From positions 35,185 to 99,184 of the forward strand of contig JABISZ010000073.1 in the NCBI GenBank assembly GCA_018668255.1: DNA of 64,000 nucleotides, read 5' to 3'. Position numbers and translations under genes: made by a program. Shown one piece after another: positions 23,505 through 41,914 of the stretch; the first letter of the stretch is position 1; every line of letters begins with the position of its first letter. Source of the stretch: Pseudomonadota bacterium (GTDB taxonomy: Bacteria; Pseudomonadota; Gammaproteobacteria; Ga0077536). The notes beneath the pieces were generated by a model. The model saw only the letters and a list, made by a program, of their open reading frames with translations. It had not been told where the DNA came from and ran no database searches.

Positions 23505-24296
23505 TCAGTATATTCTCAGTATAGCGGCATCGCCTTCGCCATCGATGAAATCATCGAATCCGTCACCAGGAGGGTTACCATCGTATAGAGAGTACTCTCT
23601 CTGCTGGCGCCAAGCCTCTCTCACGAAGGCATAAGGATCCAGCGCAGCTTGATCTCTTAATCGGCTGGCTTCGAGCAGATTCGCACGTGAATTAATTGCA
23701 CGTACAACTCCGGCTGGAACTGTTACCACTGCAGCTAAATAAGTTAAGGGATTGGTGAAAACACTCATTACCGGCGCGGAAACGTCTCTGTAGGAGCTTG
23801 GTCCCATAAAAGGAAGAGTCAGATAAGCTCCTTCGTCCGCGCCCCATTTTCCGAGTGTTTGCCCGAGATCTTCTTTACGCAAAGGCATTCCTAGCGCAGT
23901 CGCTGGATCAAATAGTCCTCCGATTCCTAGAGTACTATTTACTATAAATCTTCCTGTATCTTTAAAGAAATCCTTAGGTTTTCCTTGCAATATATCGTTT
24001 GTGATCGTGTTCAGATAGCTTGCATTATCGAAGAAATTTGTCACACCTTTTCGTACTACTACAGGTGTCACAGCTACGTATTTTTCAGCGACAGGCTCTA
24101 TAAATTTTTTGTCCAACGTATCATTAAAGGCGTAAATTTTTCTATTCATAGACTCGTGAGGATCATTGTTGGATGTTTTCGATGTCGAGGCACAGCCGGT
24201 AAACAGTACGATGCACAAAGTACTTAATAGACATTTCAGCTGTATGTGATTCTTTAACATGTAGTTTAGTCTCCTCTCGTGTCCTTGATTTCCCAT
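23505..24296 (-). CDS. mlaA: MlaA/VacJ-family outer-membrane lipoprotein
   Basis: 263 aa. A lipoprotein signal (..LFTGCAS) is followed by the MlaA core. It is adjacent to an MlaC-like (HpnM-like) gene. Confidence 0.75.
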   Translation of the reverse strand: MGNQGHERRLNYMLKNHIQLKCLLSTLCIVLFTGCASTSKTSNNDPHESMNRKIYAFNDTLDKKFIEPVAEKYVAVTPVVVRKGVTNFFDNASYLNTITNDILQGKPKDFFKDTGRFIVNSTLGIGGLFDPATALGMPLRKEDLGQTLGKWGADEGAYLTLPFMGPSSYRDVSAPVMSVFTNPLTYLAAVVTVPAGVVRAINSRANLLEASRLRDQAALDPYAFVREAWRQQREYSLYDGNPPGDGFDDFIDGEGDAAILRIY

Positions 24297-24335
24297 ATTA
24301 CCTTAATCGCACGTGCGGGCACCATATTTTTCTTT

Positions 24336-24953
24336 CTAACCTAATTCTTTCAGGGCCTCGATCTTCATTGTTAATTGTCGAAGGAGGCTTTTAATGCCAT
24401 CTTTTTCCATTATGTAAGAATATTCAGCTTTCTTTAGGGCTAGGTCTGAGACTCCCTCCGAAATTACATTTACGATAAGCCAGCCTTCTGTGTTTTTCCT
24501 CAAGAGGTATTTCAGTGATGTCCTGTCCCCGTTGTCCGACAGTAGGCTTGTACTTAAGGAAAGGGAGTTATTTCTTGATTTTCGCTCAACAATTATAAAT
24601 TTCTGACCGGAGTAGTTTGAAAAGTGGTGCGCATAGGTTGATATGCTGAGCGATCGCATGACGCTCACGAACTCCTGTTTATCCTCGTGGGACAGTACTT
24701 CCCATTTTTCCCCGAGGACTACTTTACTGATTAGTGGAAAGTTAAAACTTTGACTCACAACGTTTCTGATTATGTCTATTCGGCCGGCATGGCCCAAGCT
24801 TTTTTCAGATTTCATTGCTGTTAGCAGCACTTCGTGCAAATTGAGAACTATTTCCTCGCCGCCGAGCGAGCGATCTCCTCCCCAACCAGGAGTACTAAAT
24901 AGGCACAGAATAGAAAAAATTATGACGATTCGATAGAAATTGGCCTTACCCAT
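24336..24953 (-). CDS. Periplasmic MlaC/Ttg2D-family lipid-binding protein, HpnM-like by context
   Basis: 205 aa with a signal peptide and the MlaC-like conservation pattern (..VLGEKW..Q..F, EGVSDLALKKAEY..GIKSLLRQL). It lies immediately downstream of the hpnI/B-like and hpnH genes. Confidence 0.5.
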   Translation of the reverse strand: MGKANFYRIVIIFSILCLFSTPGWGGDRSLGGEEIVLNLHEVLLTAMKSEKSLGHAGRIDIIRNVVSQSFNFPLISKVVLGEKWEVLSHEDKQEFVSVMRSLSISTYAHHFSNYSGQKFIIVERKSRNNSLSLSTSLLSDNGDRTSLKYLLRKNTEGWLIVNVISEGVSDLALKKAEYSYIMEKDGIKSLLRQLTMKIEALKELG

Positions 24954-24977
24954 ATGACATCCTGATTAGAATATTTA

Positions 24978-26093
24978 TTAACTCATTTTACGGTATATTC
25001 TATTTTTCCAACGTGTCCGTTCGCCGCGCCAGTAGCGAATGGCCGAAGTCCATGTCATAGCTAAGAACAGCGAACTAGCAAATGGTAAAGAGAAAACCCA
25101 GAAAGATGAGCACCGGTAATGTTTTATAGTGGGCAAGTATGCAATACACATCGCTATTAGACTTATTGCGGACAATAGTCGAACATTGCTATTGCCGGAT
25201 AGAATTCCAGCCAACGGCGCTAGAAAAGTGATCACCAAGAGTGCAGAGCAGAGTAGAAGCAAAGGCAGTGAATATTTTAGTTGAGTGAATGCAGTTCTCG
25301 CGACCATGTTCCATATGTTGGACAAAGTGCCATAAGGGCGAATAGCCTCAACATCATGGCTGAGGCCGATCCACGTAAGGCCCCCTGCTTTTTTAACCAG
25401 TTTTGCAAGTGTGCAATCATCAATGATCGCATCGTGTAGTGCGGTAAAACCTCCTATATCGTCCAACTTTGACGCCTTAATTAAGATGCAGCCACCGGCT
25501 GCCCCCGCAATCTTGGAGTTTGGATCATTACTTAATGCGAAAGGATAGATAAGTTTGAAAAAAAAGATAAAAGCGGGAAGCAAAAGCTTTTCCCATAGAT
25601 TCGTTATAGGTAACAGAGCCATTATCGACACAAGGTCTAAGTTCTTTTTTTGTTGAAGCCGGAAGAGGTCTGTTAGAGCTTGGGGAGCGAGCCTTATATC
25701 AGCATCCAGCAAAAGCAAATAAGGTGTTGAGATCTTCTTCCTACCTTGCTCTAAGGCCCAGAGCTTTCCTGTCCACCCTGGAGGGGGAGGTTGCCCTTCT
25801 ACCAAATAAAGATTTTTTATGTTGAGATTTTTAACAGTGCTCGCTGTCTCATCCGTACTTTGATCATCTATCACAACGATGCCGCCCAGAGAGCCTTGCG
25901 ACGCTACAGCCAAAATAGTTTCTGTTATGCATTCTGCTTCATCTCTCGCAGGTATTAACGCAGTAATGTGGGAGAGGGAAGGAGTGCTTTGCTCAACTCT
26001 TTCTAGTTTCTCGCTTGCAGACCATGGGCGCCAAGGCAAGCACAGTAGCGTTAGCCAGAGTATTACCGAAATTGAGGAAAGAGCTATTAGCAT
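24978..26093 (-). CDS. Membrane family-2 glycosyltransferase, hopanoid-associated HpnI/HpnB-like
   Basis: 371 aa with an N-terminal TM segment, a GT-A core (IPARDEA, DDQSTDET, LLDADI) and C-terminal TM helices. It is the operon neighbour of hpnH. Confidence 0.55.
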   Translation of the reverse strand: MLIALSSISVILWLTLLCLPWRPWSASEKLERVEQSTPSLSHITALIPARDEAECITETILAVASQGSLGGIVVIDDQSTDETASTVKNLNIKNLYLVEGQPPPPGWTGKLWALEQGRKKISTPYLLLLDADIRLAPQALTDLFRLQQKKNLDLVSIMALLPITNLWEKLLLPAFIFFFKLIYPFALSNDPNSKIAGAAGGCILIKASKLDDIGGFTALHDAIIDDCTLAKLVKKAGGLTWIGLSHDVEAIRPYGTLSNIWNMVARTAFTQLKYSLPLLLLCSALLVITFLAPLAGILSGNSNVRLLSAISLIAMCIAYLPTIKHYRCSSFWVFSLPFASSLFLAMTWTSAIRYWRGERTRWKNRIYRKMS

Positions 26094-26144
26094 AGGGGCC
26101 TATACCTCCGGGTGTCGCGGCAGCATCTAGAACGTTAGCTTTTG

Positions 26145-27281
26145 TTAAGCGACTTCTCTTTTTTCCGTACCAGCTTTTTCTATGATATTTCCCATTGGGA
26201 TAATAGTCTGAGACTCAGCTTCAGGCTCTTCTTCATAGTAGAACGGAACCTCTGGTGCAAGATCCCCTTGGGTCTTTGGACCAGCTAAAAATACTTTCAG
26301 TGCCTTAAGCGGGTTATTAAACGTATCGTCAACCGCAGTAGCTTCATATCCGCAATGAACCATACAGTCAGCGCACTTCGGATTAACACCAGTACCATAT
26401 TTATCCCATGCGGTATCGTTTATTAATTCATCGAAGGTTGACGCGTAACCTTCTCCCACAAGCAGGTAACACGGTTTCTGCCAACCAAAAACATTTCGAG
26501 TGGGATTCCCCCAAGGCGTACAGTGATAGGTCTGGTTTCCGGCCAAAAAATCTAAATATAACGTAGATTGATTAAAGCGCCATTTTTTCCCCTTGCCCGC
26601 TTTAAATATATCTCTAAACAGATTTTTACTTGCTGATTTTTTAAGAAATACGTCTTGCTTTGGGGCTCTTTCATAGGAATAGCCGGGAGATATGGTGACG
26701 CCTTCTACACCAAGAGCCATCATTTCGTCCATAAAGTCACTTACTTCATCTGGTGTTTCCCCTTGGAACAGCGTGCAGTTCACAGTGACGCGAAAGCCTC
26801 GTTGAAGAGCCTTTTTAATGACACTTACGCATTTGTCATATACGCCCTTCCGGCATACAGACGCATCATGTCGTTCTCGACCTCCATCCAAATGTATGGA
26901 AAATGTAAGATACTTTGACGGCTCATACGAATCCATGTGCTTATCAAGAAGGATGGCATTAGTGCACAAATAAACAAACTTTTTACGATCGAGATACCCT
27001 TGCACTATCTGCCGCATTTCTTTGTGTATGAGGGGTTCTCCACCTGCAATCGAGACCATTGGTGCTCCGCACTCATCGATGGCTTCCATACATTTTTCAT
27101 AGCTCAGGCGCTTGTTAAGTATGTCAGACGGGTAGTCTATTTTTCCGCAACCAGAGCAAGCTAGATTACAACGGAATAATGGCTCCAGCATTAAGACGAG
27201 TGGATACCGCTTAACTCGTTTTAGTTTTTGGCTGAGAATATATCGACCTACTCGATATTGCTGGACTAGTGGAACACCCAT
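26145..27281 (-). CDS. hpnH: Radical SAM adenosylhopane synthase HpnH
   Basis: 378 aa with CNLACSGCGKI (Cx3Cx2C) about 35 residues from the N-terminus. The length and the MGVPLVQQ..YILSQKLKRVKRYPLVLMLEPLF start fit the HpnH family. Confidence 0.75.
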   Translation of the reverse strand: MGVPLVQQYRVGRYILSQKLKRVKRYPLVLMLEPLFRCNLACSGCGKIDYPSDILNKRLSYEKCMEAIDECGAPMVSIAGGEPLIHKEMRQIVQGYLDRKKFVYLCTNAILLDKHMDSYEPSKYLTFSIHLDGGRERHDASVCRKGVYDKCVSVIKKALQRGFRVTVNCTLFQGETPDEVSDFMDEMMALGVEGVTISPGYSYERAPKQDVFLKKSASKNLFRDIFKAGKGKKWRFNQSTLYLDFLAGNQTYHCTPWGNPTRNVFGWQKPCYLLVGEGYASTFDELINDTAWDKYGTGVNPKCADCMVHCGYEATAVDDTFNNPLKALKVFLAGPKTQGDLAPEVPFYYEEEPEAESQTIIPMGNIIEKAGTEKREVA

Positions 27282-27465: not shown

Positions 27466-27511
27466 TCACACCCTAAGGTAATTGCTGGCAAATTGTGAGA
27501 AAAATAATAAT

Positions 27512-29368
27512 ATGACGAATGGAAAGAAATACTCGCTACTCGACGAAATTGATAGCCCAAAGAGTATGAGAAAGTTACCGGAGGATCAGTTAATTGATTT
27601 GGCCTCCGAAGTTAGAGAGTTCCTCTTGGAGAGCATTAGCCAGGTCGGTGGTCACTTTGCTTCAGGTTTAGGAACTGTAGAACTTACTATCGCACTTCAT
27701 TATTTATTTAATACACCAGAAGACCGTATAGTCTGGGATGTAGGACATCAAGCTTATCCGCACAAAATTTTGACAGGGCGAAAAGATCGACTGCACACCA
27801 TCCGTCAGCACGAAGGTCTTGCACCATTTCCGAAGAGAGATGAGAGTCCATACGATACCTTTGGAGTTGGCCACTCCAGTACTTCTATAAGTGCTGCACT
27901 AGGGATGGCTATAGCTGCGGAGCATGACGGTACTGGTCGGCGTGCGGTAGCTGTTATCGGGGATGGAGCGATGACAGCCGGAGTAGCTTTTGAGGCAATG
28001 AATCATGCTGGAGATCTTGGTACTGATTTACTTGTTATTTTGAACGACAACAACATGTCTATTTCTCCAAATGTGGGAGCGCTTTCTAACAGGTTTGCGC
28101 AAATACTATCTGGGAAACTTTATACCAGTGTGCGAGAAGGAAGTAAGAAGATGTTGTCTCAGATGCCGTCCGTCTGGGAGTTAGCTAGACGAGCTGAGGA
28201 GCATGTCAAAGGCTTGATTGTCCCTGGAACACTATTTGAAGAGTTTGGTTTTAATTATATCGGTCCCATAGATGGACACGATTTGCCGACCTTACTCTCT
28301 ACTCTGAAAAACATTAAAAAGCTTTCTGGGCCTCAATTGCTACATGTAATAACAAAGAAAGGTAAAGGTTATGGCCCTGCTGAGTCTGACCCGATTAAAT
28401 ATCATGGTGTCTCCCCATTTGATCCAGAGGTAGGGATAAAGAAATCCCCCGTTAAAAAAGCTCCAAATTATAGCGATGTCTTTGGCGATTGGATCTGTGA
28501 TATGGCTGATCAAGATAGAAGGCTCGTAGCTATTACTCCTGCGATGAGAGAAGGCTCAGGTCTAGTCCGTTTTGAAACAGAATTTCCAAAGAGATACTTC
28601 GATGTAGCGATAGCAGAACAGCACAGTATAAATGTAGCCGCAGGTATGGCCTGTGATGGTGTTAAACCCGTAGTGGCAATTTACTCAACCTTTTTGCAGA
28701 GAGGTTACGACCAGGTAGTGCATGATGTTTGTAATCAGAACCTTCCTGTTCTTTTTGCCCTAGACCGTGCCGGCTTAGTTGGTGCAGATGGGCCAACGCA
28801 TAATGGGTGTTATGATTTATCTATTTTGCGGTGCTTGCCAAATATGACCATTATGGCGCCGTCCGACGAGAATGAGTGCAGGCAAATGTTGTACACGGGG
28901 TTCATGATGGATAGTCCAGTGGCTGTTCGCTATCCCCGAGGAACTGGTCCCGGCGCAGAGATAGAGCAACAGATGACAGCAATACCCCTAGGTAAAGCCA
29001 GCTTAAAGCGCAGAGGGGCTAAAGTTGCTTTGTTAAGTTTTGGCACGACGTTGCAGATCGCGCTGAATGTGGGCGAACGTTTAGACGCTACAGTCGTTAA
29101 CATGCGTTATGTTAAGCCGCTCGACACGGACATGATCTTGGAAATGGCTGGTTCTCATGACACCCTCATAACAATAGAAGAAAACATGGTTGCTGGTGGC
29201 GCCGGTAGTGCCGTTAATGAAGTTTTAGCGTTACATGGTAGACACTTGAAGATTTTAAACTATGGATTACCCGACAGGCTTATTCAGCATGGATCGCGTG
29301 ATGACATGCTCGTGGATGCGGGCTTGACCGAGGAAGGTTTTGAGGAGTTTGTAAAAGCCCAGTTGTGA
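27512..29368 (+). CDS. dxs: 1-deoxy-D-xylulose-5-phosphate synthase (MEP pathway entry)
   Basis: TPP-binding GDGAMTAG, conserved GHxSTS and transketolase-like domains. The ORF track starts at a TTG at 27482; the first ATG ([13 protein letters not shown]) is at 27512 and aligns with Dxs N-termini. Confidence 0.95.
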
Positions 29369-29382
29369 AATTACTGAGGAGA

Positions 29383-30456
29383 CTATCTTAGAGTTTTAGT
29401 TAAAGCTTCCAAGAGTCTGTTCATATCATTCTCAGAGATTGCACCCATCAGAGATAATCTGAAAACCTTAGTTGAAAAGTGTCCTTGGCCTGCGTAGATA
29501 ATGAATCCAAGCGACTTGAGTTCATCGTGTAAATGCTGATACACCTTACCTAATGGCAGTTGGAACGTGTTGAGAACGCAGGAAGATTCAGATAGCTCTA
29601 TTAGTGGTTTTATCCCGAAAGAGAGCAACTTTTTCTGCACTTTTGACATTCTGCTAGAAAACAACTGATGTCGAGCTTGCCAGCCCCCTTCCTCTAAAAA
29701 CTCGTTCATCGCCTCATCAAAGGCGTAAAAGCATTGCACTGATTGTGTGAAAGGCGTTTCACCTAGATCTTGCTTAACAAGGTACTGGGCTAGGTCCAGG
29801 TAAACTGATTTTGCGGGGTGGGTTGTTTGAAAAAGTACTCGTCGGGCAACAACGAAAGCTGTTCCTGGTACACCATGTAGGCACTTGTTCGCTGTCGCGG
29901 CACAGGCATCAAGCTCCCACTTTTCGAAGTCTATACTTTCCCCCCCAAAACTACTTACACCATCCATTAACACGCGTGCCCCATGCTTCCGGCACACCTC
30001 AGAAATAGCTGCAATATCATTTAGGCGTCCAGTGGTAGTTTCGTGATGGACTATCGCTACATGTGAGTATCGAGATCCATCAAGCGCTTTATCTAGCTTT
30101 TTCAGTGAGATTACTTGATCCCATCCTGTACTGAGCTTTTCATGATCTATATTATGCGCAATCGCAATTTTGGTCATACGTTCACCATAAACGCCATTTT
30201 CTACGATCAGGATCTTTCCACTCGGAGGAACGCAACTTACAAGCATGGCTTCTACGGCCGCGGTCCCTGACCCAGTCAATAAAATACTTGCCCAAGTTTT
30301 GTTATCGAGCGCATATGCCGCAAGAATTTTTTGCCTAATTTTTCTCTGCAGGTTAGAGAATTCGATTTCCCTGTGACAAAGATCTTGGCCTTGCAGAGCG
30401 TCTCGCACTCGTTGGCTAAGTGTTACTGGTCCAGGATTTAAAAGAATCTGTTTCAC
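29383..30456 (-). CDS. phnW: 2-aminoethylphosphonate:pyruvate aminotransferase (PhnW/AepZ, class V)
   Basis: 357 aa. NPGPV, HREIEF, HHETTTG, SSFGG and ANKC..GVPG all match PhnW. Confidence 0.75.
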   Translation of the reverse strand: MKQILLNPGPVTLSQRVRDALQGQDLCHREIEFSNLQRKIRQKILAAYALDNKTWASILLTGSGTAAVEAMLVSCVPPSGKILIVENGVYGERMTKIAIAHNIDHEKLSTGWDQVISLKKLDKALDGSRYSHVAIVHHETTTGRLNDIAAISEVCRKHGARVLMDGVSSFGGESIDFEKWELDACAATANKCLHGVPGTAFVVARRVLFQTTHPAKSVYLDLAQYLVKQDLGETPFTQSVQCFYAFDEAMNEFLEEGGWQARHQLFSSRMSKVQKKLLSFGIKPLIELSESSCVLNTFQLPLGKVYQHLHDELKSLGFIIYAGQGHFSTKVFRLSLMGAISENDMNRLLEALTKTLR

Positions 30457-30492: not shown

Positions 30493-31632
30493 CTATCCAA
30501 TATGGCTTTTGAGACGGACTAAAACATCTGATGGAGCTATTGTAGGCCGAGGTAGACCTTTTGGCACTCCAGTTTGGATTTTCATATGCATGAACCGAGC
30601 GCCTCTATGGCTAGGCTCAGTTAGGAAGTCATGCAAAACTTCTAATTTATTGCTGCGCCAGACATTAGAGTAACCGCAGGCAACAGCTATTCCATCAAAC
30701 TGGGTGTCTTTAGAAACAGTCGCTTGACCACCAGTAGAGTCATGCGCTTCGTTGTCTAGTAACAAATGAGAAAAGTTAGGTGGATTACATGCCCCTATGG
30801 TTGCAAGATTGCCTAGTCGCATTAGTGCGGCCCCATCGCCGTCTATGACTAGTACTTTTAAATCAGGCCGACTAAGCGCTAATCCTAGACCGAGTGACGA
30901 AGCGCACCCCATGGATCCAACCATATAGAAATAATTCGGGAGATCGGCGATAGAGTAAAGCTCGCGACCGGTATATCCGGTAGTGGCTATGACGACGGTA
31001 TTAGTTTGTTGAGTCGTCTTTACTATCGATTGCAGAACTTGGTTTCTCGTTAGTGTAGTAACGTCAATATTTTCATCACCGTGATAAAAAGTATTTTGTT
31101 TCTTGTTTGGGAGTTGATTGGATAGATTAAAGTTCGCCACCGATCCTTTTTGCATAATCAAAGAGTAGGATTCATGTTTTTCTTCTATGCTTTGCGAGAT
31201 GTTGGCTAGGGTTGAATTAATTTCCTTAGTTGCTCGTGGGAAACTCTCATAGCTTATGCCAATACAATCGAATAACTCTTTTGTAATATTGCCCATCAGT
31301 TCATGTTGTGGTTCGTCCTGTAGTCCAGGTTCACCTCGATGAGTACAGATTACCAAGACGGGGATCTTAAAAGTATGTATGAGAGAAGTGAGCGGGCTAA
31401 TAGCATTACCGAGCCCTGAGTTTTGCATTAAGGCAACACTTTTTTTCCCACCTATAGAAGCACCTGCTGCTATAGCTATTGCATCGCCTTCATTCGCGGC
31501 TGAAACATAATTGAGCGAACTTGCGCTGATTACGTAGTTTATTAGTGGGGTTAAAAAAGAGCATGGTACTCCTGCGTACCAATCATACCCTTGATTTTTT
31601 AGCGGCAATATAAACTCTTCTGCTCGTATCAC
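30493..31632 (-). CDS. ppd: Phosphonopyruvate decarboxylase (TPP-dependent)
   Basis: 379 aa with a TPP-binding GDGAALM..N motif. Its length and the N-terminus MIRAEEFI..YDWYAGVPCS are typical of AepY/Ppd. It lies directly downstream of the PEP mutase. Confidence 0.75.
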   Translation of the reverse strand: MIRAEEFILPLKNQGYDWYAGVPCSFLTPLINYVISASSLNYVSAANEGDAIAIAAGASIGGKKSVALMQNSGLGNAISPLTSLIHTFKIPVLVICTHRGEPGLQDEPQHELMGNITKELFDCIGISYESFPRATKEINSTLANISQSIEEKHESYSLIMQKGSVANFNLSNQLPNKKQNTFYHGDENIDVTTLTRNQVLQSIVKTTQQTNTVVIATTGYTGRELYSIADLPNYFYMVGSMGCASSLGLGLALSRPDLKVLVIDGDGAALMRLGNLATIGACNPPNFSHLLLDNEAHDSTGGQATVSKDTQFDGIAVACGYSNVWRSNKLEVLHDFLTEPSHRGARFMHMKIQTGVPKGLPRPTIAPSDVLVRLKSHIG

Positions 31633-33290: not shown

Positions 33291-34023
33291 TTATTTTAGG
33301 CAATATTTCTTGTGAAGCTCGCTCAATATCCTCAGGGTAATCTATTTCTATCCAAGGGAGTCCGGTTATGTCCTCCACTCCTATATTATAGCCTGCATTG
33401 ATCGCAAGTTCTCGCAGCGCTTCTTCATGCGGTTGAGACTCCATACCAGCTTCAATAAATTCAGCGATAATTTCTTTCAGTCTTGCCGCAGTACTTGCGC
33501 AAAATTTGAAGAAACCGACTGACTCGCCTATTTGGTCATATATCAGGCTAGGGTCTATTTTTTTTCTGAATTCCACAATTCGCTCATTCTCTATGCATAT
33601 TTTTACGGGCTCATCTCCGTCTATGTAATGCCGGTCAATTAAGAAACAATCTTTAGAAGGGCTATGGATTAGCCGAGATAATATCTCAGGATGATATAAG
33701 ACATCAGCATCCATAACTAGAACATCACTGGTACCATCACACAAAACATCTCGCATACTCCAAAGGCTAACAATTGAACCCAAATCATATAAAGGGTTGT
33801 GCTCATGAGATATATCCGTCAACCCTTTTTGCTCAAGCCTTTTGAGTACGTTGAGTGCCTCATGTCCAAGGCAGAGATTGATGTCAGTTACTCCTAGTTT
33901 CCTAAGTGTGCGAATGTGTCTTTCAAGAAGAGAGGTACCGTCAAATTCTAAGAGGCACTTTGCAGTCACATGCGCAGAGCTAATACGATTCCCCACTCCT
34001 GCGGCCAGTATTATAGCCTTCAT
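33280..34023 (-). CDS. Nucleotidyltransferase (LicC/sugar-phosphate NTP-transferase family)
   Basis: 247 aa beginning [14 protein letters not shown], a G-x-G-x-R nucleotidyltransferase motif. It overlaps ppm by 11 bp and the upstream gene by 4 bp. Confidence 0.65.
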
Positions 34024-34808
34024 TGTGGCTTCTTAAGCAGGCGCGCCAGAGTTTTGCCAACGCCGAAATATGCGAATGCGTCTTTCAGCTGTCCGTAGAA
34101 ATATCCAAAGTTTGAAATACCCTTATCCGTAAGGTACTCAAGCGTCAATACGGTTCGCTTGTCTCGCGGTTTGGCCGGTGTAACTCGATGTCGAATGTTG
34201 TCTCCATTAAAAAAAACAAGAGAACCGGGTGAAATTTTCGTGCTACACATTATAGTTTCCTTACGATCATCTTTGCTAAACAGCTCGTATTCGAGCGCAC
34301 AGCAAGAGTCGTCTACGAGGCCTATCAGACAGGTATATCGAGAACCTCTATAATATGATTTGTCGTAATGAAATCCGATGTGGTCTCCTTCTCGGTCGTA
34401 GGAATACACGGCATAGGCATGAGGATCGCTCTCAGGGCAGTATAGGAGTGATTTACCGACTACAGAACTTAAGAAGCTCCTGAGTGAAGCTGAAGTGTAG
34501 ATAGAGCTGAATATTGGAGCGTTCAGGTCCAAATCAAATCTCGAGATGCTACCCCCTTTTTTGTGTTTAGGTATAAAACTTCTGTGAATATATGGTTCGA
34601 GTTGAGGTAGACTCTCTTGCATAGAGCACAGAAGAGAGTGGGGTAAAAAATCGTCTATTTGTATAAACTCGTCGTTTGTTCGAAATTCAGTCTGTGAGCT
34701 GTTGGCTTGTATGCTACTCAATCGATTTAAAGGGTCGATTTCAGCAGCTGATTTGTAACTAGCGATGGTCATGTGACGGTAAACAACCTTTTTTTCACTG
34801 ACGCTCAT
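34020..34808 (-). CDS. 2OG-Fe(II) oxygenase-like protein (putative hydroxylase)
   Basis: 262 aa. An HxD..H arrangement (GDHIGFHYD ... NGDNIRHRV) with a downstream R fits the double-stranded beta-helix fold. The family assignment is tentative. Confidence 0.4.
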   Translation of the reverse strand: MSVSEKKVVYRHMTIASYKSAAEIDPLNRLSSIQANSSQTEFRTNDEFIQIDDFLPHSLLCSMQESLPQLEPYIHRSFIPKHKKGGSISRFDLDLNAPIFSSIYTSASLRSFLSSVVGKSLLYCPESDPHAYAVYSYDREGDHIGFHYDKSYYRGSRYTCLIGLVDDSCCALEYELFSKDDRKETIMCSTKISPGSLVFFNGDNIRHRVTPAKPRDKRTVLTLEYLTDKGISNFGYFYGQLKDAFAYFGVGKTLARLLKKPQ

Positions 34809-34911
34809 CTTTGGAAAGGATTCCCCCAGACAAAGAGGGCCTGTTTTTCATAGTGTAATTTGCTGAGCGTCCGGTGATTATGCCATAGTCCGACAATGCG
34901 TAACCATAAAA

Positions 34912-35934
34912 TTGGCTAATAAAATGTCAAAAATCATCAAGTTTCTATTTTTATTATTCGGTATCGGGTTGCTGGTAGCGGTTACTTACCAGACTGACTT
35001 GACCCAATTAGCGAGGCACATTTCTGCTATTGGTCTTTTCGGGGTTGCTTTAATTCTTACCGTTTATATTCTGTACTTCGGAGCTGATGTCCTGAGTTGG
35101 CAAATCACTATGGTGAAGATTCCTGTGACATTTCTTTGGTTCGGTCGTCTTTACGTGGTGCGGATGATTGGCGAAGCTTATAACAACCTTACGCCGACAG
35201 CATCCTTAGGGGGGGAGCCCATTAAGGCGTGGTTGTTAAAATCGAATTGGGCGATCCCACTTAGAGATTCAGCATCCTCGTTGGTTATTGCAAAAACAGC
35301 AAGCATGTTCTCCTTATCCCTTTTCGGTAGTGTAGGTGTCCTCTTTCTTTTTCAGAGTTCTGCATTTGCGGGGGAGCAGAAAAGTATTGCGCTAGGCGGA
35401 TTGATTTTTATAGTGTTTTCTTCCGTGATCTTTTTTATGATGCAATATTTCCGCTTTTCATCCTATCTGGTGGGTAAAATTTCAAGCAATCGATTTGCTG
35501 GATTGTTAAAAAAAGCTTTTAGCACAATAGAAGATATAGACAAGAGGTTTGATGTCTTCTATCGGGAGCATAGTCTGCGTTTCGGATTCGCTTGCTTAGC
35601 GGCTATGGCTAATTGGTTAATCGGCGTTGTTGAGGTTTTTGTGATCTTGTATCTCATTGGTTATCCATTGTCTCTTGCGGAGGTGTTTATTATAGAAAGC
35701 CTTGTCCAACTGGTCCGTACAATCACATTTTTTGTTCCGGCAGGGCTGGGCACTCAAGAAGGGGCATTTTTTATTGTCGTCGGTGCCCTTACTGGGGTGT
35801 CTTCTGCAGGCTTGGCAGTGGCTCTCATCAGGCGATTTAGAGAGTTAATTTGGTTGGCAGTAAGTTTTTTGTTAGCGATATTTTACTCAGTAAGGCCCAG
35901 AACGATTTCAAAATTAGATTTTAAGGAGCTTTAG
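34912..35934 (+). CDS. UPF0104 flippase-like/LPG-synthase-TM family membrane protein, HpnL-like
   Basis: 340 aa with about 8 predicted TM segments and charged loops typical of the lysyl-PG-synthase TM (flippase-like) family. It is embedded in the hpn/phosphonate block. Confidence 0.5.
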   Translation: MANKMSKIIKFLFLLFGIGLLVAVTYQTDLTQLARHISAIGLFGVALILTVYILYFGADVLSWQITMVKIPVTFLWFGRLYVVRMIGEAYNNLTPTASLGGEPIKAWLLKSNWAIPLRDSASSLVIAKTASMFSLSLFGSVGVLFLFQSSAFAGEQKSIALGGLIFIVFSSVIFFMMQYFRFSSYLVGKISSNRFAGLLKKAFSTIEDIDKRFDVFYREHSLRFGFACLAAMANWLIGVVEVFVILYLIGYPLSLAEVFIIESLVQLVRTITFFVPAGLGTQEGAFFIVVGALTGVSSAGLAVALIRRFRELIWLAVSFLLAIFYSVRPRTISKLDFKEL

Positions 35935-35943: not shown

Positions 35944-36936
35944 TCAACCTATCATTTTCATTTTACGGAACCACTCCAATGAGTCATGAATGGCTATTTT
36001 TGCGGGGCGCGCACTATAGCCAAGTTCTTTAGAGGCTCGTGCCGATGAAAAGAACATTTTATGTGCAGCCATCCTTAACCCATCAACTGTGGCTTGCGGT
36101 TCCGCCCCATTAATTAGGCCTGCCCACACTTCAGAGGCAAATGCAATTGGGTAGACAATCGCTCTGGGAATTCTTATGCGAGGTGGAGGATGGTTACAGT
36201 AAGCGGCAACAATGTCGAGGATCTCTTTTAGAGTTTGGTTCTCGCCGCCAAGAATATATCTTCGTCCAACTTGACCTTTGTCATAAGCCAGCAAATGTCC
36301 TGTTGCTACATCGTCTACATGAGCGACATTCAGTCCGGTATCAATGTATGCAGGCATGCGACGATTGGCGGCATCTCTTATGATTCTTCCTGTAGGGGTC
36401 GGTTTAGGATCACGCGGTCCGATCGGTGTAGACGGGTTTACAATGACAGCGGGCAGATTTTCCTCCGCTACAAGACGATCGACAACTTTTTCAGCTAAAA
36501 ATTTTGAACGTTTGTAGTGACCAATCATGTCCTTAAGATTTGAAGGCGTATCTTCGCAAGATGAAGTTCCATCATTCATTAAGCCGATAGTAGCGACACT
36601 GCTGGTATAAATTATTTTACTAACCCCTGCTCGCATTGCGGCACGCATAATGTTTTCTGTTCCTGCTACGTTATTAGCATACAATTCATCAGGGTTTTTA
36701 ACCCATAATCTATAGTCGGCCGCAACGTGATAGAGAGTGTCACATCCTTTTAACGCACGTTCCAACGAGCCACCATCTTGGAGGTCTCCGTTAACAACTG
36801 GAACATCTAGATCAGAAATGGTTCGGGTATCACTCGATACCCGCTTGAGTATCTTTAAAGGGACCCCTTTACTCAGGAGCGCTCTCGCTACAGCATTTCC
36901 AAGGAAGCCGGTTGCACCTGTTACAAGAGTCGTCAT
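35944..36936 (-). CDS. hpnA: NAD-dependent epimerase/dehydratase, hopanoid-associated HpnA-like
   Basis: 330 aa with the Rossmann motif VTGATGFLGNAV and a YxxxK-type SDR core. It is coupled by a 4-bp overlap to the CDP-alcohol phosphatidyltransferase, in the same operon as hpnN and hpnG. Confidence 0.6.
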   Translation of the reverse strand: MTTLVTGATGFLGNAVARALLSKGVPLKILKRVSSDTRTISDLDVPVVNGDLQDGGSLERALKGCDTLYHVAADYRLWVKNPDELYANNVAGTENIMRAAMRAGVSKIIYTSSVATIGLMNDGTSSCEDTPSNLKDMIGHYKRSKFLAEKVVDRLVAEENLPAVIVNPSTPIGPRDPKPTPTGRIIRDAANRRMPAYIDTGLNVAHVDDVATGHLLAYDKGQVGRRYILGGENQTLKEILDIVAAYCNHPPPRIRIPRAIVYPIAFASEVWAGLINGAEPQATVDGLRMAAHKMFFSSARASKELGYSARPAKIAIHDSLEWFRKMKMIG

Positions 36937-37541
36937 TTTTCTTCAACCATGATTTTGCCGTACTGGAAAACGACAAATGCAGCAGCTAAAGGAGCGCCAA
37001 GGCTAGCTAGGTATAAAAAATAATTTAAACCCTCTAAGAGGGTGACAATTGGAATTAAATACAGAATATCTTCTGCCTCGAACCCCCCCCAAAAAGCCTG
37101 ATCAATTTTCGACTTTCCATGCTTTTCTTCTATTAAATAGCGTAAGTGGAAGATAAGTGCTACTGATACTCCTGAAATTACGCCGGCTTCTAAGGCGTAA
37201 TTAGTTTCTGGGGAGAGAGCAACACCAACGCCTATTCCCACAAACATTAATACGGTCACTAAGGCATCAGATGCTAGATCAAAAATATGTCCAAATCTAC
37301 TTTGTTTATCTGCAAGTCGAGCTAACTCTCCATCCATATGATCAATAAAGTTAGATGAGATGATGAGTACTGCAGCTGTATTGAGATAAGTTCCCTTGGC
37401 AAAGAGCCACGCGCCTGCAAGCCCTACAACTAGTCTTAGTAGAGTGAAGTGATTAGGATGGATTGTGTTGGAGTCTTTAAAAGGCGCTATCAGCCAAGCC
37501 GCAGCTTTCGCATCCCAAGGTTTATGTCGCAATTTCCGCAC
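36933..37541 (-). CDS. CDP-alcohol phosphatidyltransferase family protein
   Basis: 202 aa with about 5 TM segments and a DHMDGELARLADKQSRFGHIFDLASDAL motif, i.e. D-G-x2-A-R...G-x3-D-x3-D. It overlaps hpnN by 20 bp and hpnA by 4 bp. Confidence 0.8.
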   Translation of the reverse strand: MRKLRHKPWDAKAAAWLIAPFKDSNTIHPNHFTLLRLVVGLAGAWLFAKGTYLNTAAVLIISSNFIDHMDGELARLADKQSRFGHIFDLASDALVTVLMFVGIGVGVALSPETNYALEAGVISGVSVALIFHLRYLIEEKHGKSKIDQAFWGGFEAEDILYLIPIVTLLEGLNYFLYLASLGAPLAAAFVVFQYGKIMVEEK

Positions 37542-40155
37542 CCCTTTTTACATATCTGCGAAGTAGTAGTGGAAGACATCCCAGCGTACTAATTAAAGTT
37601 ACTGAAAGGCCTAAGCTGAGTAAAAGACCCATACTTCCTGTACCCGCATGAGGTGAAATAGCCAAGTTGCCAAAGCTAGCCATGGTAGTCAGTGTGCTTA
37701 GAAACACTCCTCGTGCGGTACTGGTTTGCATGAAATTTATAGATAGGCCGTCCTGGTTAATATGACGATGAATAATATGAAGCGTGCTATCAACGCCAAT
37801 GCCGACGATCAAGGGGAGAGCAATGATGTTGGCAAAATTAAACGGCAAGCCGACTAAAACCATGATGGAAGTTGTTGCTACACACGCTAAGAGCATAGGT
37901 ACGAGAGCGATTACTACATGGGAAGATTTTCTCAAAGACACCCACAGCACTCCAATGATAACGAGACAGGCGGTCGCAAATGCTTGAGCGAACGAACTAA
38001 GTACTGAACGACTCGCTTCCAGGCTGACAATAGGGGTGCCAGTAGCACTAGGGCCGGTAACTTTCCTCACCTCTGCTATAAAGTCAGAGATTTTATCATT
38101 CGAATCTAATGGTTCCTGCGGATTAATTTGCAGTCTGATACGCCCTTCTTCGGTTACCCATCGACTTTTAAGGACGGCGGGTAAATTCTCAAATGTAACT
38201 AAGTTTGGAGACAGGCCCTCATTTAGTTTTTTTATCAATGGAGAGAAGTGACGCATAGTCACTGCCTCCAAATCCTGTGCATATTTAAAGTTTTGGTCGC
38301 GATCGGCGGTACTCACTCGATTTAATATTTTTTGTAGTTGAACATTATAAAGGAGTGATGCTTTTGAAGGCTCGGAATGCTGTTTTATCGTTTCAATATT
38401 GCGAATTAAACTAGTTTTGAGGGCTCCAAGATCAAGGTTCGGTACGTCGATATCTTCGGCAAGTTGAAATTCTCCTCCTATCACTAGCCCTAACTCATCG
38501 ATGACAGTTAGTTTTGAGGCTTGCTTTTGCGGGATGAAAGACGACACCAAAGTAACGTCACCAACCTCTGAGACTTCAGATAGCCGTTTCTTTATTTGTA
38601 GGGCATTAGCCATATCGCTTGCAATAAATGAAATCTCGTCTAATGGACTCTCTTTGTCTAGAGATATTTCATATAAAGTTTTTACAGACTCAGCATCTTG
38701 GTTATTTAGATGGAGTGGGTTGATATCGAAAGAGATATCTTTTGAGATATATATGCCTACGGACACAAAAACAACTAGCAGAGTTATGAAGTATTTTGAC
38801 GATGTTTCGGTGGTCCCGTGATGAGAGAGCTCTTTTCTATCACCCGAAGGTCTTTTATTTTTTTGTGCCGGTAGTACTGACAGGCAGGCAGGAAGAACAG
38901 TGAAGCTCATGAGAAAGCTTACAAGCATACCCACGCCGGCTATCATTCCTAGCTCTCCTACTCCTTTGTAGTCAGTTGGGATGAATGCGAGAAAGCCTAC
39001 TGCACTAGTTAGCGCACATAATCCGAGCGGCACTACTCCATGGCGAGCCGCAGCAGTTATGGCCTCAAGCTTAGAGCGAAAGAGACTTTCTTCTTGGAAT
39101 CGCAAGCAGTAGTGAATGGTAAAGTCAGCGCCTAGGCCCACATATAAGATAGCAAAAGCTATCGAAATCATATTTAGTGTGCCTATAGCAACCGTCGCGA
39201 ATGCGGCTGTTAAGGCTAATCCTGCGAGCAAGGTGAAAAGAGTTGCTGCCAGCAAAGAAACGGATCTTAAGCCTACCAGAAGTACGACAATAATTAAGAT
39301 GAACGAGAGCGCTGCGGCTTGCTTTGCTCCTTCTATGACGCTTAGCAATTCCTCGTGGCCAAGTGCGGCAGGACCAGTGAGTCTTATGGTAATCTCCGGC
39401 CAAAGTTCTGAGTCGAAGATATTTATTACAGATCGCAGGTCAGATATGACCTTATCAGCAGGTAAAATCTGGTTGAAGTCCAACTGAGGTGTGAGAACGA
39501 TTATGCGCCTGTGCGTTTTCCCCGATGCGCGGTCGTCTTCTAAGAAACTCTGCCAAGACGTAGGGATGGAGTTTGTTCCTGAGCGTTCTAACTCTGTGGC
39601 CAGCGTCATTATGAAGCTTTCTGACTCAGGATCGTCCGTGTTTTTTGCCCGTTTATTTATCTCATTAGTGAGTGCGAGCAGCCCATTCAAACTCGGATCG
39701 GCAGCTAACCTTCCAAGCATTGCTTGAGCATTTGTGAGTTTTTTCGCTAATATTTCTACTTCTTGAAGAGAGAGATATAGAAGCTTGTTTTCTCGAAAAA
39801 AAACACTGTTTTGAGGGTAAAAAACTTGTTGTGGACTAAAACCTAACTCAGAGAGCTGAGATATGAAGAGTTCAGCGGCTTCATCAGTTAAGTCGGGAGT
39901 TGGCCCTTCAATCACTATCGCGATCGTGTCAGAGAAAAAAGGGAAAGCCTGCTTGAAGTCTGTTTGTGCGACTCTCCATGGTACCTCGGACGAGATCATA
40001 TCTTCGGTGTTGGTGTTGATTTTTGCATGCAATATGGTTACCCAGGTACATACACTAGCGGCTAGAAAAGCCATACATAGAACCCAATATTTGTGTTTTA
40101 CGCTGGACCGAGTAATGGCTGCCATGGCCTTTAAGGAGATGTTCTTTAGAGACAT
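37522..40155 (-). CDS. hpnN: RND/MMPL-family hopanoid transporter HpnN-like
   Basis: 877 aa with two six-TM bundles separated by large periplasmic domains. The size and architecture are typical of HpnN/MMPL exporters. It overlaps hpnG by 10 bp. Confidence 0.7.
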   Translation of the reverse strand: MSLKNISLKAMAAITRSSVKHKYWVLCMAFLAASVCTWVTILHAKINTNTEDMISSEVPWRVAQTDFKQAFPFFSDTIAIVIEGPTPDLTDEAAELFISQLSELGFSPQQVFYPQNSVFFRENKLLYLSLQEVEILAKKLTNAQAMLGRLAADPSLNGLLALTNEINKRAKNTDDPESESFIMTLATELERSGTNSIPTSWQSFLEDDRASGKTHRRIIVLTPQLDFNQILPADKVISDLRSVINIFDSELWPEITIRLTGPAALGHEELLSVIEGAKQAAALSFILIIVVLLVGLRSVSLLAATLFTLLAGLALTAAFATVAIGTLNMISIAFAILYVGLGADFTIHYCLRFQEESLFRSKLEAITAAARHGVVPLGLCALTSAVGFLAFIPTDYKGVGELGMIAGVGMLVSFLMSFTVLPACLSVLPAQKNKRPSGDRKELSHHGTTETSSKYFITLLVVFVSVGIYISKDISFDINPLHLNNQDAESVKTLYEISLDKESPLDEISFIASDMANALQIKKRLSEVSEVGDVTLVSSFIPQKQASKLTVIDELGLVIGGEFQLAEDIDVPNLDLGALKTSLIRNIETIKQHSEPSKASLLYNVQLQKILNRVSTADRDQNFKYAQDLEAVTMRHFSPLIKKLNEGLSPNLVTFENLPAVLKSRWVTEEGRIRLQINPQEPLDSNDKISDFIAEVRKVTGPSATGTPIVSLEASRSVLSSFAQAFATACLVIIGVLWVSLRKSSHVVIALVPMLLACVATTSIMVLVGLPFNFANIIALPLIVGIGVDSTLHIIHRHINQDGLSINFMQTSTARGVFLSTLTTMASFGNLAISPHAGTGSMGLLLSLGLSVTLISTLGCLPLLLRRYVKRGAEIAT

Positions 40156-40829
40156 CGTTGTAGTAGAGCAGCTGCTTTTTTGAGTTGGCGAAGCGCTGAA
40201 TAGTAATTCAAGCCTAGCCGCATTAGCGAAAACAGTTGCAATGGGTTCTGTGTCAGTTCTTTAATGAGTTGGAAAACATTAACCTCTCCATTGTTTTTAA
40301 ATGAGCTAGTCGCGGCCACGGGAAGGTCATAGTCTGAGCGGTCAACTATGCACCGAACAGCAATAAAGTTTATTTTCGCATCACATGCTACTTTTGCAAT
40401 CGCAGCGCTTTCCATATCTACACTTTCAGCGCGGAATTTTTCGCGCAGCTCTTGCTTTTCTATCGCTAAGGGCACTGGTTTTTCAGCGCTGTAGAGTAAC
40501 CCACCTACTTTGGGATCTAAAGATCTGAACGTTTCTACCAGTGACTTAAGATCATCGGAATCAAATTTAAAGGATTCACTTCGATCATTTATAACGGCAC
40601 TGGTTACTATAAGATCCCCCACGGTAAGTTGTGGGTCTAATGCTCCAGCCACTCCCCAACTGATGAGACAGTCGCATCCTTGTTCCAGAAGACTTTTCGC
40701 CGACAACCTCGCATTTGTTTGTCCGGCGGACCCAGTGGCAAAATGCCAGCTGTTTTGTTCTGAGTAGCCTGAATCGCTATTAAATGTTTTAGCCTCCGCA
40801 GGCATGGCGGTAATGACTCCAAAGCGCAC
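40146..40829 (-). CDS. hpnG: PNP/MTA-nucleosidase-family protein, hopanoid-associated HpnG-like (adenosylhopane nucleosidase)
   Basis: 227 aa with a GVITAMPAEA start and a GVAGALDP..VGDLIV core of the PNP_UDP_1 fold. It is the operon partner of hpnN and is preceded by the squalene-synthase-like gene. Confidence 0.6.
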   Translation of the reverse strand: MRFGVITAMPAEAKTFNSDSGYSEQNSWHFATGSAGQTNARLSAKSLLEQGCDCLISWGVAGALDPQLTVGDLIVTSAVINDRSESFKFDSDDLKSLVETFRSLDPKVGGLLYSAEKPVPLAIEKQELREKFRAESVDMESAAIAKVACDAKINFIAVRCIVDRSDYDLPVAATSSFKNNGEVNVFQLIKELTQNPLQLFSLMRLGLNYYSALRQLKKAAALLQRCL

Positions 40830-40831
40830 GA

Positions 40832-41914
40832 TTAATTCTGTTTCTTAGGTATGGTTAAATCAGAAATGCTGTCTAAAGGGGTCTTGATTTCTTTTTTCTT
40901 CAAGCCTAGAGCGCTTGTTTTAAACAGTAATTTGAGCGCAGTATTGGACATGGCGAAAAAACTAGTGGCGAGAGCAGTTATCTTCACACTCCTGCGTGAT
41001 ATTTTCACTTGAGAACCATGGGTGAAATTGGGGTTTTTCCAGATTTTTTTTATGGTCAATAATGACATTCCAAGCGCCCATAGGCAGAATCGCCTTATCC
41101 CTGTCTGGTTTCGGGGGAGCAGCAGAGTAAAGCTGAGGGCATTACTCAAATGCCCGGATGCAGTCGCAAGCATTTCAAGCATAAAGCTGCGGAAAGGCTC
41201 GCCACCATTTTCTGGGGCGAGTGTCTTGAACAACACTCCGTGTTTTTGTAACGTTGTGCCAGGGAGCCAACATGCGCCCCGTTCTCGATCGGTCCAAACG
41301 TCTTTTAGGATGTTGGTCATTTGTAGCGCCTGGCCAAATGAGACAGAGAGTTGAAGGAGTAGCTCTTTTTTTGGCTCTAGCTCGGGGCAGTAGTCACAAA
41401 ACAACTCAGCGAGCATTTCTCCAACGACGCCAGCAACATAATAGCAATACCGATCCATTTCATTCTGATCTGCTAAGCCGTCTAGTGTTTCTTTTTCTTG
41501 ATAATACATCATACCCTTGGTCATTGTCAGAACGCATCTGGTTATGGCCAATTTTTGTGTGGTACGTAAATCGCGTGTTATTCGCAGTACTCTTCCCGAG
41601 GACTCTATAAGTTCTTTTTCTGCGATAGGGGTGTCTGCCGCTAGACAAGCCGAGAGATCGTTTTCAAAAGGTATATGATCCTCGGCTCCCTGGAGGAGAG
41701 ATACGAACCAATCTGAAAATCTTACTTTTTGATCTTTAGACATTTCTGGATCATCTTCTATTGTGTCTGCGATCCGACATAATAAGTAAGCATTCCCAAC
41801 AGCTCGCCTAAGTACACCAGGCAGTTGAGGGATCGTTAATGCAAAGGTGCGAGACACACCAATGAGGATGTCCGCCTGGAACTGTTCATCTTCTATAGTA
41901 GGTGCTGTATCCAT
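40832..41914 (-). CDS. Squalene/phytoene synthase family enzyme (squalene synthase-like; HpnC/HpnD/Sqs family)
   Basis: 360 aa with both Asp-rich motifs (YLLCRIADTIEDD; YCYYVAGVVGEM..; NILKDVWTDRERGACWLP). There are no carotenoid genes nearby. It heads the hpnG-hpnN operon. Confidence 0.7.
   Translation of the reverse strand: MDTAPTIEDEQFQADILIGVSRTFALTIPQLPGVLRRAVGNAYLLCRIADTIEDDPEMSKDQKVRFSDWFVSLLQGAEDHIPFENDLSACLAADTPIAEKELIESSGRVLRITRDLRTTQKLAITRCVLTMTKGMMYYQEKETLDGLADQNEMDRYCYYVAGVVGEMLAELFCDYCPELEPKKELLLQLSVSFGQALQMTNILKDVWTDRERGACWLPGTTLQKHGVLFKTLAPENGGEPFRSFMLEMLATASGHLSNALSFTLLLPRNQTGIRRFCLWALGMSLLTIKKIWKNPNFTHGSQVKISRRSVKITALATSFFAMSNTALKLLFKTSALGLKKKEIKTPLDSISDLTIPKKQN

Follow-up and report, generated by a model that had tools for sequence, protein, structure and literature searches.

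The window analysed here comprises 64,000 nucleotides of contig JABISZ010000073.1 (positions 35,185 to 99,184, forward strand) from the assembly GCA_018668255.1 of a marine Pseudomonadota bacterium assigned to the gammaproteobacterial lineage Ga0077536. Between positions 23505 and 41914 of the window lie 16 tightly packed genes that, judged by their open reading frame (ORF) coordinates, form five transcription units, and in which homologs of hopanoid biosynthesis and export genes are interleaved with a pathway to 2-aminoethylphosphonate (AEP). An earlier description made from the letters of this DNA (the sequence-only reading) had listed the same 16 ORFs; all were found at the coordinates given for them, and nearly every assignment it gave is backed by profile searches, in which genes were named according to the curated Pfam and NCBIfam cut-offs. 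The AEP gene set is itself already known; what the present analysis adds is its linkage to hopanoid genes in several distinct architectures. For this comparison, one genome per species was scanned for relatives of a CDP-alcohol (CDP-OH) phosphotransferase encoded in the block, which yielded at least 574 loci, and the best 80 were compared; individual loci, including some beyond these 80, are numbered below with the prefix L. Base composition is even across the block (GC 0.43-0.45), Rfam and tRNA scans found no Rfam families or tRNAs in the window, and promoter and terminator scans of the region returned fewer matches than shuffled controls.

The first transcription unit, on the minus strand from 41914 to 35944, opens with a gene of the squalene/phytoene synthase family (40832-41914; PF00494, 189 bits; TIGR01559, 105 bits, below cut-off). 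Its product is likely a squalene synthase (SQS) and is 44-59% identical to the SQS encoded beside the cyclase gene shc in the related loci L074, L081 and L089. Next is a gene for an HpnG-like nucleoside phosphorylase or nucleosidase (40146-40829), which would convert adenosylhopane to ribosylhopane; TIGR03468 is its best match, at 157.5 bits against a cut-off of 187.1 (PF01048, 73 bits), and its position between SQS and hpnN is conserved in related loci. The HpnN-family RND (MMPL) hopanoid transporter that follows (37522-40155) gives a split result, passing TIGR03480 (799.8 bits against 751.85) and falling under the stricter equivalog model NF052374 (597.6 against 1100). The last two genes of the unit are those of the CDP-OH phosphotransferase (36933-37541; PF01066, 60 bits against a cut-off of 22) and of HpnA, a hopanoid-associated SDR/epimerase-family protein (35944-36936; TIGR03466, 468.8 bits against 367.65). 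The second-best family for HpnA is SdmB, a component of the Methylococcus sterol demethylase (NF052578, 223 bits), which suggests that the substrate of HpnA may be a triterpenoid or polyol and not a sugar nucleotide. Successive junctions in this unit consist of a 2-base gap and then overlaps of 10, 20 and 4 bp. The last two of these, 37522-37541 between hpnN and the transferase gene and 36933-36936 between the transferase gene and hpnA, had been taken earlier to couple the transferase translationally to its neighbors, and they are correct as ORF coordinates.

At the other end of the block, a second hopanoid operon runs on the minus strand from 27281 to 23505. Its first gene encodes the radical SAM adenosylhopane synthase HpnH (26145-27281; TIGR03470, 553 bits against a cut-off of 225), followed by an HpnB-like hopene-associated GT2 glycosyltransferase (24978-26093), whose best match, TIGR03469, is 2 bits short of its cut-off (377.1 against 379.25), by the MlaC-like periplasmic lipid-binding protein HpnM (24336-24953; TIGR03481, 172.6 bits against 160.1) and by an MlaA-family outer-membrane lipoprotein (23505-24296; PF04333, 236 bits). 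A recent preprint from the Belin laboratory proposes that HpnM and an MlaA-like protein, HpnS, act as a periplasmic hopanoid shuttle working with HpnN (10.1101/2025.07.29.667474), and the last two genes of the block match that pair, the MlaA-family protein being a candidate HpnS. Upstream of hpnH and on the plus strand, a unit of its own is formed by dxs (27482-29368; TIGR00204, 908 bits against 466), which encodes the 1-deoxy-D-xylulose-5-phosphate synthase of isoprenoid precursor supply and retains its position in 36 of the 80 related loci.

With respect to this half of its gene content the block resembles the canonical hpn clusters of the R. palustris, Burkholderia and Methylococcus type, which contain shc, hpnC-E or sqs, hpnH, hpnG, hpnA, hpnB, hpnN and hpnM. 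The proposal that its Hpn-like proteins fall into hopanoid-specific families stands for HpnH, HpnA and HpnM, which exceed the curated family cut-offs, and for HpnN on TIGR03480 but not on NF052374; HpnB, HpnG and HpnL have hopanoid-associated models as their best matches at scores under the respective cut-offs. The SQS-family, dxs and MlaA/HpnS-like genes are present as well. Unlike such clusters, the locus in the window has neither shc nor an hpnI/J/K or hpnO head-group pathway, and a C-P bond-forming pathway stands in that place.

The phosphonate genes occupy most of the interior of the block. The minus-strand unit extending from 34808 to 29383 encodes, in order, an Fe(II)/2-oxoglutarate (2OG) oxygenase (34020-34808; PF23169, 43.8 bits against a cut-off of 26), a stand-alone PntC/LicC-like cytidylyltransferase designated NT2 (33280-34023; PF12804, 48 bits), a phosphoenolpyruvate (PEP) mutase fused to a LicC/PntC-like nucleotidyltransferase domain (Ppm-NT, 31644-33290; TIGR02320, 390 bits against 319.55; PF12804 over residues 303-413), the phosphonopyruvate decarboxylase Ppd (30493-31632; TIGR03297, 424 bits against 312.5) and an AEP aminotransferase (AEPT) of the biosynthetic PhnW/AepZ type (29383-30456; TIGR03301, 390 bits against 361). 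The mutase retains its catalytic motif EDKxxxxxNS at residue 116. Since Ppm, Ppd and AEPT all score above their curated cut-offs, the presence of a complete AEP pathway interleaved with hopanoid genes, as first read from the sequence, is borne out. Divergent from this operon, on the plus strand, is a single gene for an HpnL-like membrane protein with an MprF-flippase-type domain (34912-35934; PF03706, 95 bits; TIGR03476, 145.3 bits, below the cut-off of 195.65). The 103-bp spacer between the two (34809-34911) carries a 10/12 sigma-70-like match, TTGACA-16 nt-TATGGT, on the minus strand at 34930-34903; it was the one noteworthy match of the promoter and terminator scans and is not used as evidence here.

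Comparisons with characterized proteins indicate how the module might activate and modify its product. As in the PntC/LicC type of activation (Rice et al., 2019, PMC6697681; 6pd1), the block encodes two LicC/PntC-like cytidylyltransferases and then a CDP-OH phosphotransferase, and fusion of the nucleotidyltransferase to Ppm is found in about a third of Ppm proteins (PMC6697681). The C-terminal domain of Ppm-NT is of the NTP_transf_3 type, with LicC (1jyk) and PntC (6pd1) as matches in the PDB, and the best PDB match of NT2, over its full length, is the PntC-AEPT of Treponema denticola (6pd1, E = 7e-9). The two nucleotidyltransferases are distant paralogs, with 23% identity to one another. The 2OG oxygenase (262 residues) belongs to the BesD/HalD family, and its closest PDB entry is HalD (7u6h). 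Enzymes of the BesD/HalD type act on free amino acids. In this family an HxD/E...H facial triad marks hydroxylases and HxG/A marks halogenases; across 72 homologs the residues H147-Y-D149 and H207 show at least 97% conservation, with D149 aligning to the glycine of HalD. A halogenase reading of this HalD-like protein is therefore rejected in favor of a hydroxylase, and the protein would fit the published idea of 1-hydroxy-AEP formation.

The CDP-OH phosphotransferase (202 residues) carries the family signature D-x2-D-G-x2-A-R-x8-G-x3-D-x3-D on helices 2-3, with D66, D69, G70, A73, R74, G83, D87 and D91 invariant in 23 homologs. Its AlphaFold model (pLDDT 91.6, pTM 0.87) has six helices and matches AF2299, IPCT-DIPPS and phosphatidylinositol phosphate synthases (PIPS) with TMq values of 0.72-0.78 (4o6m, 4mnd, 6h59, 5d92). 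It is a bacterial or archaeal type of enzyme of about 200 residues and resembles DIPPS and PIPS more than it does the ten-helix CEPT/CPT enzymes of the eukaryotic Kennedy pathway. The neighborhood suggests that its donor is the CMP-activated form of AEP or of hydroxy-AEP, (H)AEP, which would make it an (H)AEP-phosphonyl transferase. For the HpnL-like protein, a search of PDB sequences gave no match, and TIGR03476, which covers its full length, is its only NCBIfam match. Its predicted structure (pLDDT 88) has a meaningful TM-score only to the membrane domain of the flippase MprF (9j8q, 7f47, 7duw; TMq 0.55-0.56, probability 1.00, but E-values of 0.04-0.18). It shares the PF03706 domain and the membrane-domain fold with MprF and, unlike MprF, has no aminoacyl-synthase domain.

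The likeness to IPCT-DIPPS (di-myo-inositol phosphate phosphate synthase; 4mnd, 4o6m) bears on what the transferase modifies. That system likewise pairs a cytidylyltransferase with a CDP-OH phosphotransferase and provides the best sequence and structure matches for NT2, which resembles the IPCT domain (69.5 bits), and for the transferase; moreover, the closest relatives of the latter, IPCT-DIPPS/AF2299 and the PIPS enzymes, take soluble inositol phosphates. Conceivably, then, (hydroxy)AEP could be placed on an acceptor that is not a lipid, or at least not a hopanoid, such as a soluble polyol phosphate (giving a DIPPS-like phosphonodiester of the compatible-solute type), a polyprenol-linked glycan, lipid A or the core of lipopolysaccharide, with the hopanoid neighborhood then reflecting only general envelope biology. 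Glycan decoration is the supposed role of about half of ppm clusters (PMC6697681), which is in keeping with such an acceptor. In the window, unlike IPCT-DIPPS, the two activities are encoded by separate genes at about 20% identity, and their context suggests that the donor is a phosphonate and the product a membrane lipid. The module is also always accompanied by an MprF-flippase-like protein and is variably joined to HpnN, HpnM, MlaA-like or Omp85 genes, its conserved core lacks Wzx/Wzy, LicD and polymerase genes, and the sole glycosyltransferase is the hopanoid-associated HpnB. An acceptor of this kind seems unlikely.

The phosphonate genes, which had looked like an ad hoc insertion into a hopanoid cluster, prove to be a known cluster core. 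In a survey of 882 RefSeq ppm neighborhoods, the "Burkholderiales_CDP-OH" group accounted for 318 (~36%), making it the most abundant ppm family, with a core consisting of a CDP-OH transferase, a 2OG oxygenase, a PF03706 membrane protein, a second PntC, Ppm-NT, Ppd and AEPT (Li and Horsman, 2022, PMC8942020). All seven genes are present in the window between 29383 and 37541. The group corresponds to the "Group 1 phosphonolipid" clusters predicted by Yu et al. in 2013, occurs in B. pseudomallei and its relatives, and has yielded no characterized phosphonolipid (PMC8942020); the published prediction for its product is a diacylglycerol phosphonolipid (PMC5987646, PMC8942020). The core of the window is homologous to those of Pandoraea, Paraburkholderia and Cupriavidus, with 40-60% identity to the Group 1 genes. 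Its arrangement differs from that of Group 1 clusters, however. The seven genes do not form one contiguous, co-directional operon, as they do in L027, L044 and L081: the transferase gene sits apart from the others, next to hpnN on one side and hpnA on the other, the HpnL-like gene lies on the opposite strand, and dxs and the hpn operons flank the rest.

The identity of the HpnL-like protein requires a similar adjustment. It had been counted among the hopanoid components, and HpnL is the family that it matches. It belongs, however, to the seven-gene phosphonate module, since a Group 1 cluster drawn in lichen-associated Nostoc and in Burkholderia includes the same membrane protein, labeled hpnL (PMC5987646). 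The window protein is only 22-30% identical to the HpnL proteins of Burkholderiales and scores under the TIGR03476 cut-off, which the HpnL proteins of the module in Pandoraea L027 (352.5 bits) and in L081 (313.2 bits) pass.

The association of this module with hopanoid genes recurs well beyond the window. Because the 80 loci are phylogenetically clustered, their counts do not represent independent events, and the argument rests instead on the number of distinct architectures. The one seen in the window, with the transferase gene adjacent to hpnA and with SQS, hpnG, hpnN, dxs and hpnH around it, is found in 32 of the 80; the sequence-only reading had proposed looking for this gene order in related genomes, and it is kept in 31 loci other than the window, whose transferases are 50-88% identical. 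Such conservation argues that the arrangement is not due to chance. An accidental juxtaposition of two islands, or a chimera of assembly, might have been suspected on the grounds that gene order in metagenome-assembled genomes (MAGs) can be chimeric and that the module also occurs alone. Yet the identical interleaved order appears in independent assemblies and samples, including contigs 0.99 Mb and 4.7 Mb long and one closed chromosome, GC is uniform across the block, and ORFs overlap across the supposed junctions. The conserved synteny effectively refutes an accident or chimera, which we consider highly improbable.

A different architecture is seen in 17 of the 80 loci (16 from Pandoraea and one from Herbaspirillum), where the module is contiguous and has an hpnN-type RND gene next to it, in Pandoraea together with dxs. 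In the Herbaspirillum locus, L049, the RND gene that the module abuts scores as an equivalog of HpnN (NF052374, 1247 bits against 1100). In Cupriavidus, an HpnM-like gene follows the module. The most compact arrangement is that of the Steroidobacteraceae-type loci L081 and L074, where a single co-directional run reads IDI-hpnH-ispA-SQS-shc-hpnG-hpnA-CDPOH-2OG-HpnL-NT2-PpmNT-Ppd-AEPT-Omp85, the shc of L074 having been recovered by a motif scan and confirmed by Pfam. In the sister genomes of L081 (L082 and L083) the hopanoid operon is the same but stops at hpnA, and the module is missing; the module therefore behaves as an accessory tailoring cassette on the hopanoid operon. In Steroidobacteraceae-type loci the gene that follows the AEP module encodes a conserved Omp85-superfamily outer-membrane protein in place of an HpnN-, HpnM- or MlaA-like one (L081:21050-21935, L044:17217-18602, L025:15723-17594, L026:13285-14757, L063:12814-14181). 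According to one tabulation, none of six Steroidobacterales genomes has SHC (0/6; preprint 10.1101/2025.07.29.667474). The idea that Steroidobacterales are hopanoid-free carriers of the module, which would have told against a hopanoid acceptor, was dropped nonetheless, SHC homologs being abundant in Steroidobacteraceae MAGs and shc being joined to the module in L081.

A further variant, at L089:1846-8549, consists of the transferase gene (its product 32% identical to that of the window) and an HpnL-like gene beside SQS-shc-hpnG-hpnA, without AEP biosynthesis genes. Immediately upstream of this pair is a PotABCD/PhnT2-like ABC importer, whose match to the model for the putative AEP-transporter ATPase, at 344 bits, is below the cut-off of 458. 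The PhnT2 and PotA models score almost equally, both under their cut-offs, and the AEP importer reading is left as a lead; the importer hints that the head group may be salvaged. In a neighbor-joining tree of the transferase, hpn-linked loci sit on deep branches and the unlinked loci form one derived clade. Overall, comparative genomics supports and strengthens the proposal of a functional tie between the phosphonate module and hopanoid biosynthesis and export.

Traces of this association can be found in the literature, so that the earlier claim of an undescribed linkage stands for the chemistry, whereas the linkage itself had been glimpsed before. A genome survey of Acetobacteraceae noted a linkage between shc and pepM in Roseomonas, which it called an "undiscovered terpene-phosphonate" (PMC8776678). 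In the supplementary tables of preprint 10.1101/2025.07.29.667474, two phosphonate enzymes are among the protein domains correlated with SHC across Gammaproteobacteria, PEP mutase with r = 0.43 (p = 3e-58) and Ppd with r = 0.38 (Table S7); the HpnL model TIGR03476 has r = 0.70-0.76. Among genes within 20 ORFs of shc, the CDP-OH transferase (1409 occurrences) is as frequent as hpnG (1398) and hpnN (1333) (Table S8). No discussion of these figures was found in the main text of that preprint. In Alphaproteobacteria, HpnL occurs only in hpnH-positive members (PMC12583986), and HpnL is also encoded in hpn clusters without a CDP-OH transferase, as rows for Commensalibacter and one for Cupriavidus in the preprint show (10.1101/2025.07.29.667474). 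To judge from these sources, a systematic coupling of hopanoids and phosphonates has been noticed only in passing and never explained.

With these comparisons in hand, a product can be proposed. The reading we put forward, at slightly less than an even chance, is that the block is a hopanoid cluster for the biosynthesis and export of bacteriohopanepolyol (BHP) with an integrated AEP cassette, in which CMP-(hydroxy)AEP is transferred onto a hydroxyl of the BHP and the product is flipped and exported. Ppm, Ppd and AEPT would convert PEP by way of phosphonopyruvate and phosphonoacetaldehyde to AEP, which might then be hydroxylated to 1-hydroxy-AEP by the 2OG oxygenase. Activation would give CMP-(H)AEP, the phosphonate analog of CDP-ethanolamine, from which the membrane-bound transferase, working at the inner leaflet, would pass the phosphonyl group to the hydroxyl of a lipid. 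The likeliest acceptor, in our view, is the polyol side chain of a hopanoid extended by HpnH, HpnG and a further reductase, and the resulting zwitterionic phosphono-BHP would be flipped by HpnL and delivered to the outer membrane by HpnN, HpnM and the MlaA/HpnS-like lipoprotein. The only characterized bacterial lipid with the head group predicted for the module is the 1-hydroxy-2-aminoethylphosphonate sphingophosphonolipid of Bacteriovorax stolpii, whose gene cluster is an AEPT-encoding ppm neighborhood (GCF 761; PMC8942020). In that lipid, unlike the one proposed here, the anchor is a ceramide, and its gene cluster belongs to a distant family.

A BHP acceptor is favored because several independent architectures join the transferase gene to hpn genes in one operon, because it stays with shc where the AEP genes are missing (L089), because HpnL, a family confined to makers of extended hopanoids, accompanies it, and because the expected glycerophosphonolipid has never been seen. 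By extension, it could be that the seven-gene module of the window, of Burkholderiales and Steroidobacteraceae, of lichen-associated Nostoc and of Roseomonas attaches (hydroxy)AEP to a BHP side chain throughout, yielding a zwitterionic phosphono-hopanoid that is not found in the literature searched; this broader proposal, too, is advanced tentatively, with confidence just short of the midpoint. For bacteriohopanetetrol (BHT) as the acceptor, the predicted [M+H]+ ions are at m/z 654.486 for BHT-AEP and 670.481 for the hydroxy-AEP form.

Several observations weigh against the attachment of the phosphonate to a hopanoid. In 31 of the 80 loci there is no hpn gene within ~10 kb, and some loci hold four-gene versions of the module (CDP-OH transferase, 2OG, HpnL and NT2) without nearby ppm, ppd or aept. 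Such versions are found in Burkholderia and Paraburkholderia (L058, L077, L080 and L078, in the last of which the next gene encodes an MFS efflux-type transporter) and in MAGs (L026, L061, L073). In Burkholderia proper, moreover, the tabulated shc loci have no CDP-OH transferase or HpnL nearby (preprint 10.1101/2025.07.29.667474). The HpnL-like and HpnG-like proteins of the window score under curated cut-offs, and the scheme does not account for the presence of two nucleotidyltransferases in the module. A check for shc, on which the hopanoid interpretation had been made to depend, gave a divided answer: the gene was not found among all window ORFs of at least 120 aa (64 kb, searched with NCBIfam) or in the reachable flanks (~10 kb beyond the 3′ end and ~5.6 kb beyond the 5′ end), whereas it lies inside the homologous clusters L074, L081 and L089. 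For the source organism itself we infer its probable presence only from HpnH and the other hpn genes. With regard to the acceptor, the nearest solved relatives of the transferase (DIPPS and PIPS) use soluble ones, and we know of no CDP-OH phosphotransferase that uses a triterpenoid polyol. Finally, no phosphorus-containing BHP was found in the literature searched, though the hopanoids of Burkholderia, Nostoc and Acetobacteraceae have been surveyed.

The absence of hpn genes near 31 of the loci, the Omp85-family neighbor of the Steroidobacteraceae-type loci, the want of a phosphorus-containing BHP and the lack of a known triterpenoid-using relative are also what would be expected if the module makes diacylglyceryl-(hydroxy)AEP, a C-P analog of phosphatidylethanolamine that is co-regulated or co-exported with hopanoids without being covalently linked to them. 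The proximity of the genes would then be explained by shared regulation, or by a common HpnL/HpnN/HpnM/HpnS route in outer-membrane remodeling. CEPT1 and CPT1 are among the structural and sequence matches of the transferase, and eukaryotic CEPT and EPT enzymes make AEP-diacylglycerol from CMP-AEP. A diacylglycerol product is, in addition, what has been published as the prediction for the cluster family (PMC5987646; PMC8942020). However, Burkholderia has not yielded a phosphonolipid of this kind, although the cluster is prevalent there and its expression has been detected (PMC8942020), and the restriction of HpnL to hpnH-positive genomes in Alphaproteobacteria (PMC12583986) does not sit easily with a glycerolipid. 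Co-regulation alone also poorly explains a transferase gene translationally coupled inside hpnN-hpnA, a cassette appended to shc-hpnG-hpnA in one operon, or a transferase gene and HpnL beside shc without AEP genes, as in L089. We regard a diacylglycerol product as the main contender, somewhat less probable than phosphono-BHP, and retain the latter as the preferred, if tentative, reading.

Two questions meet at this locus, namely the product of the commonest ppm cluster family and the roles of hpnL, hpnA and hpnB, to which no function is assigned (PMC12583986; preprint 10.1101/2025.07.29.667474). If the phosphono-BHP reading is true, the product of the most abundant bacterial ppm cluster family would be identified and HpnL would gain a function. 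There would also be a class of hopanoids bearing phosphorus and nitrogen, relevant to the biology of the outer membrane and to withstanding phospholipases and phosphatases, and a possible lipid source of marine phosphonates; the interpretation of hopanoids and phosphonates as biomarkers would be affected as well. If the product is instead a diacylglycerol phosphonolipid, the conserved link between it and the machinery that exports hopanoids would in itself add something new on how envelope lipids are trafficked.

Outside the block, a few neighboring genes deserve mention. On the window's contig, some 7-9 kb past its 3′ end (L085:16590-18880), three genes side by side encode a DUF3641-containing radical SAM protein, a GT2 glycosyltransferase and a protein with DUF2064, a trio reminiscent of the gene sets of arsenosugar biosynthesis. 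Within the window, the segment 44233-46907 contains an azurin gene (44233-44703), a 301-aa ORF without a Pfam or NCBIfam match (44907-45812) and then a gene for a TIGR03617 F420-dependent LLM-class oxidoreductase (348 bits against a cut-off of 278), an F420-dependent enzyme being unexpected in a gammaproteobacterium. Further isoprenoid genes are scattered through the window that holds the hopanoid block and dxs: ispG (6421-7644), ispB, whose product resembles octaprenyl-diphosphate synthase (47169-48122), and ispH (54668-55639).

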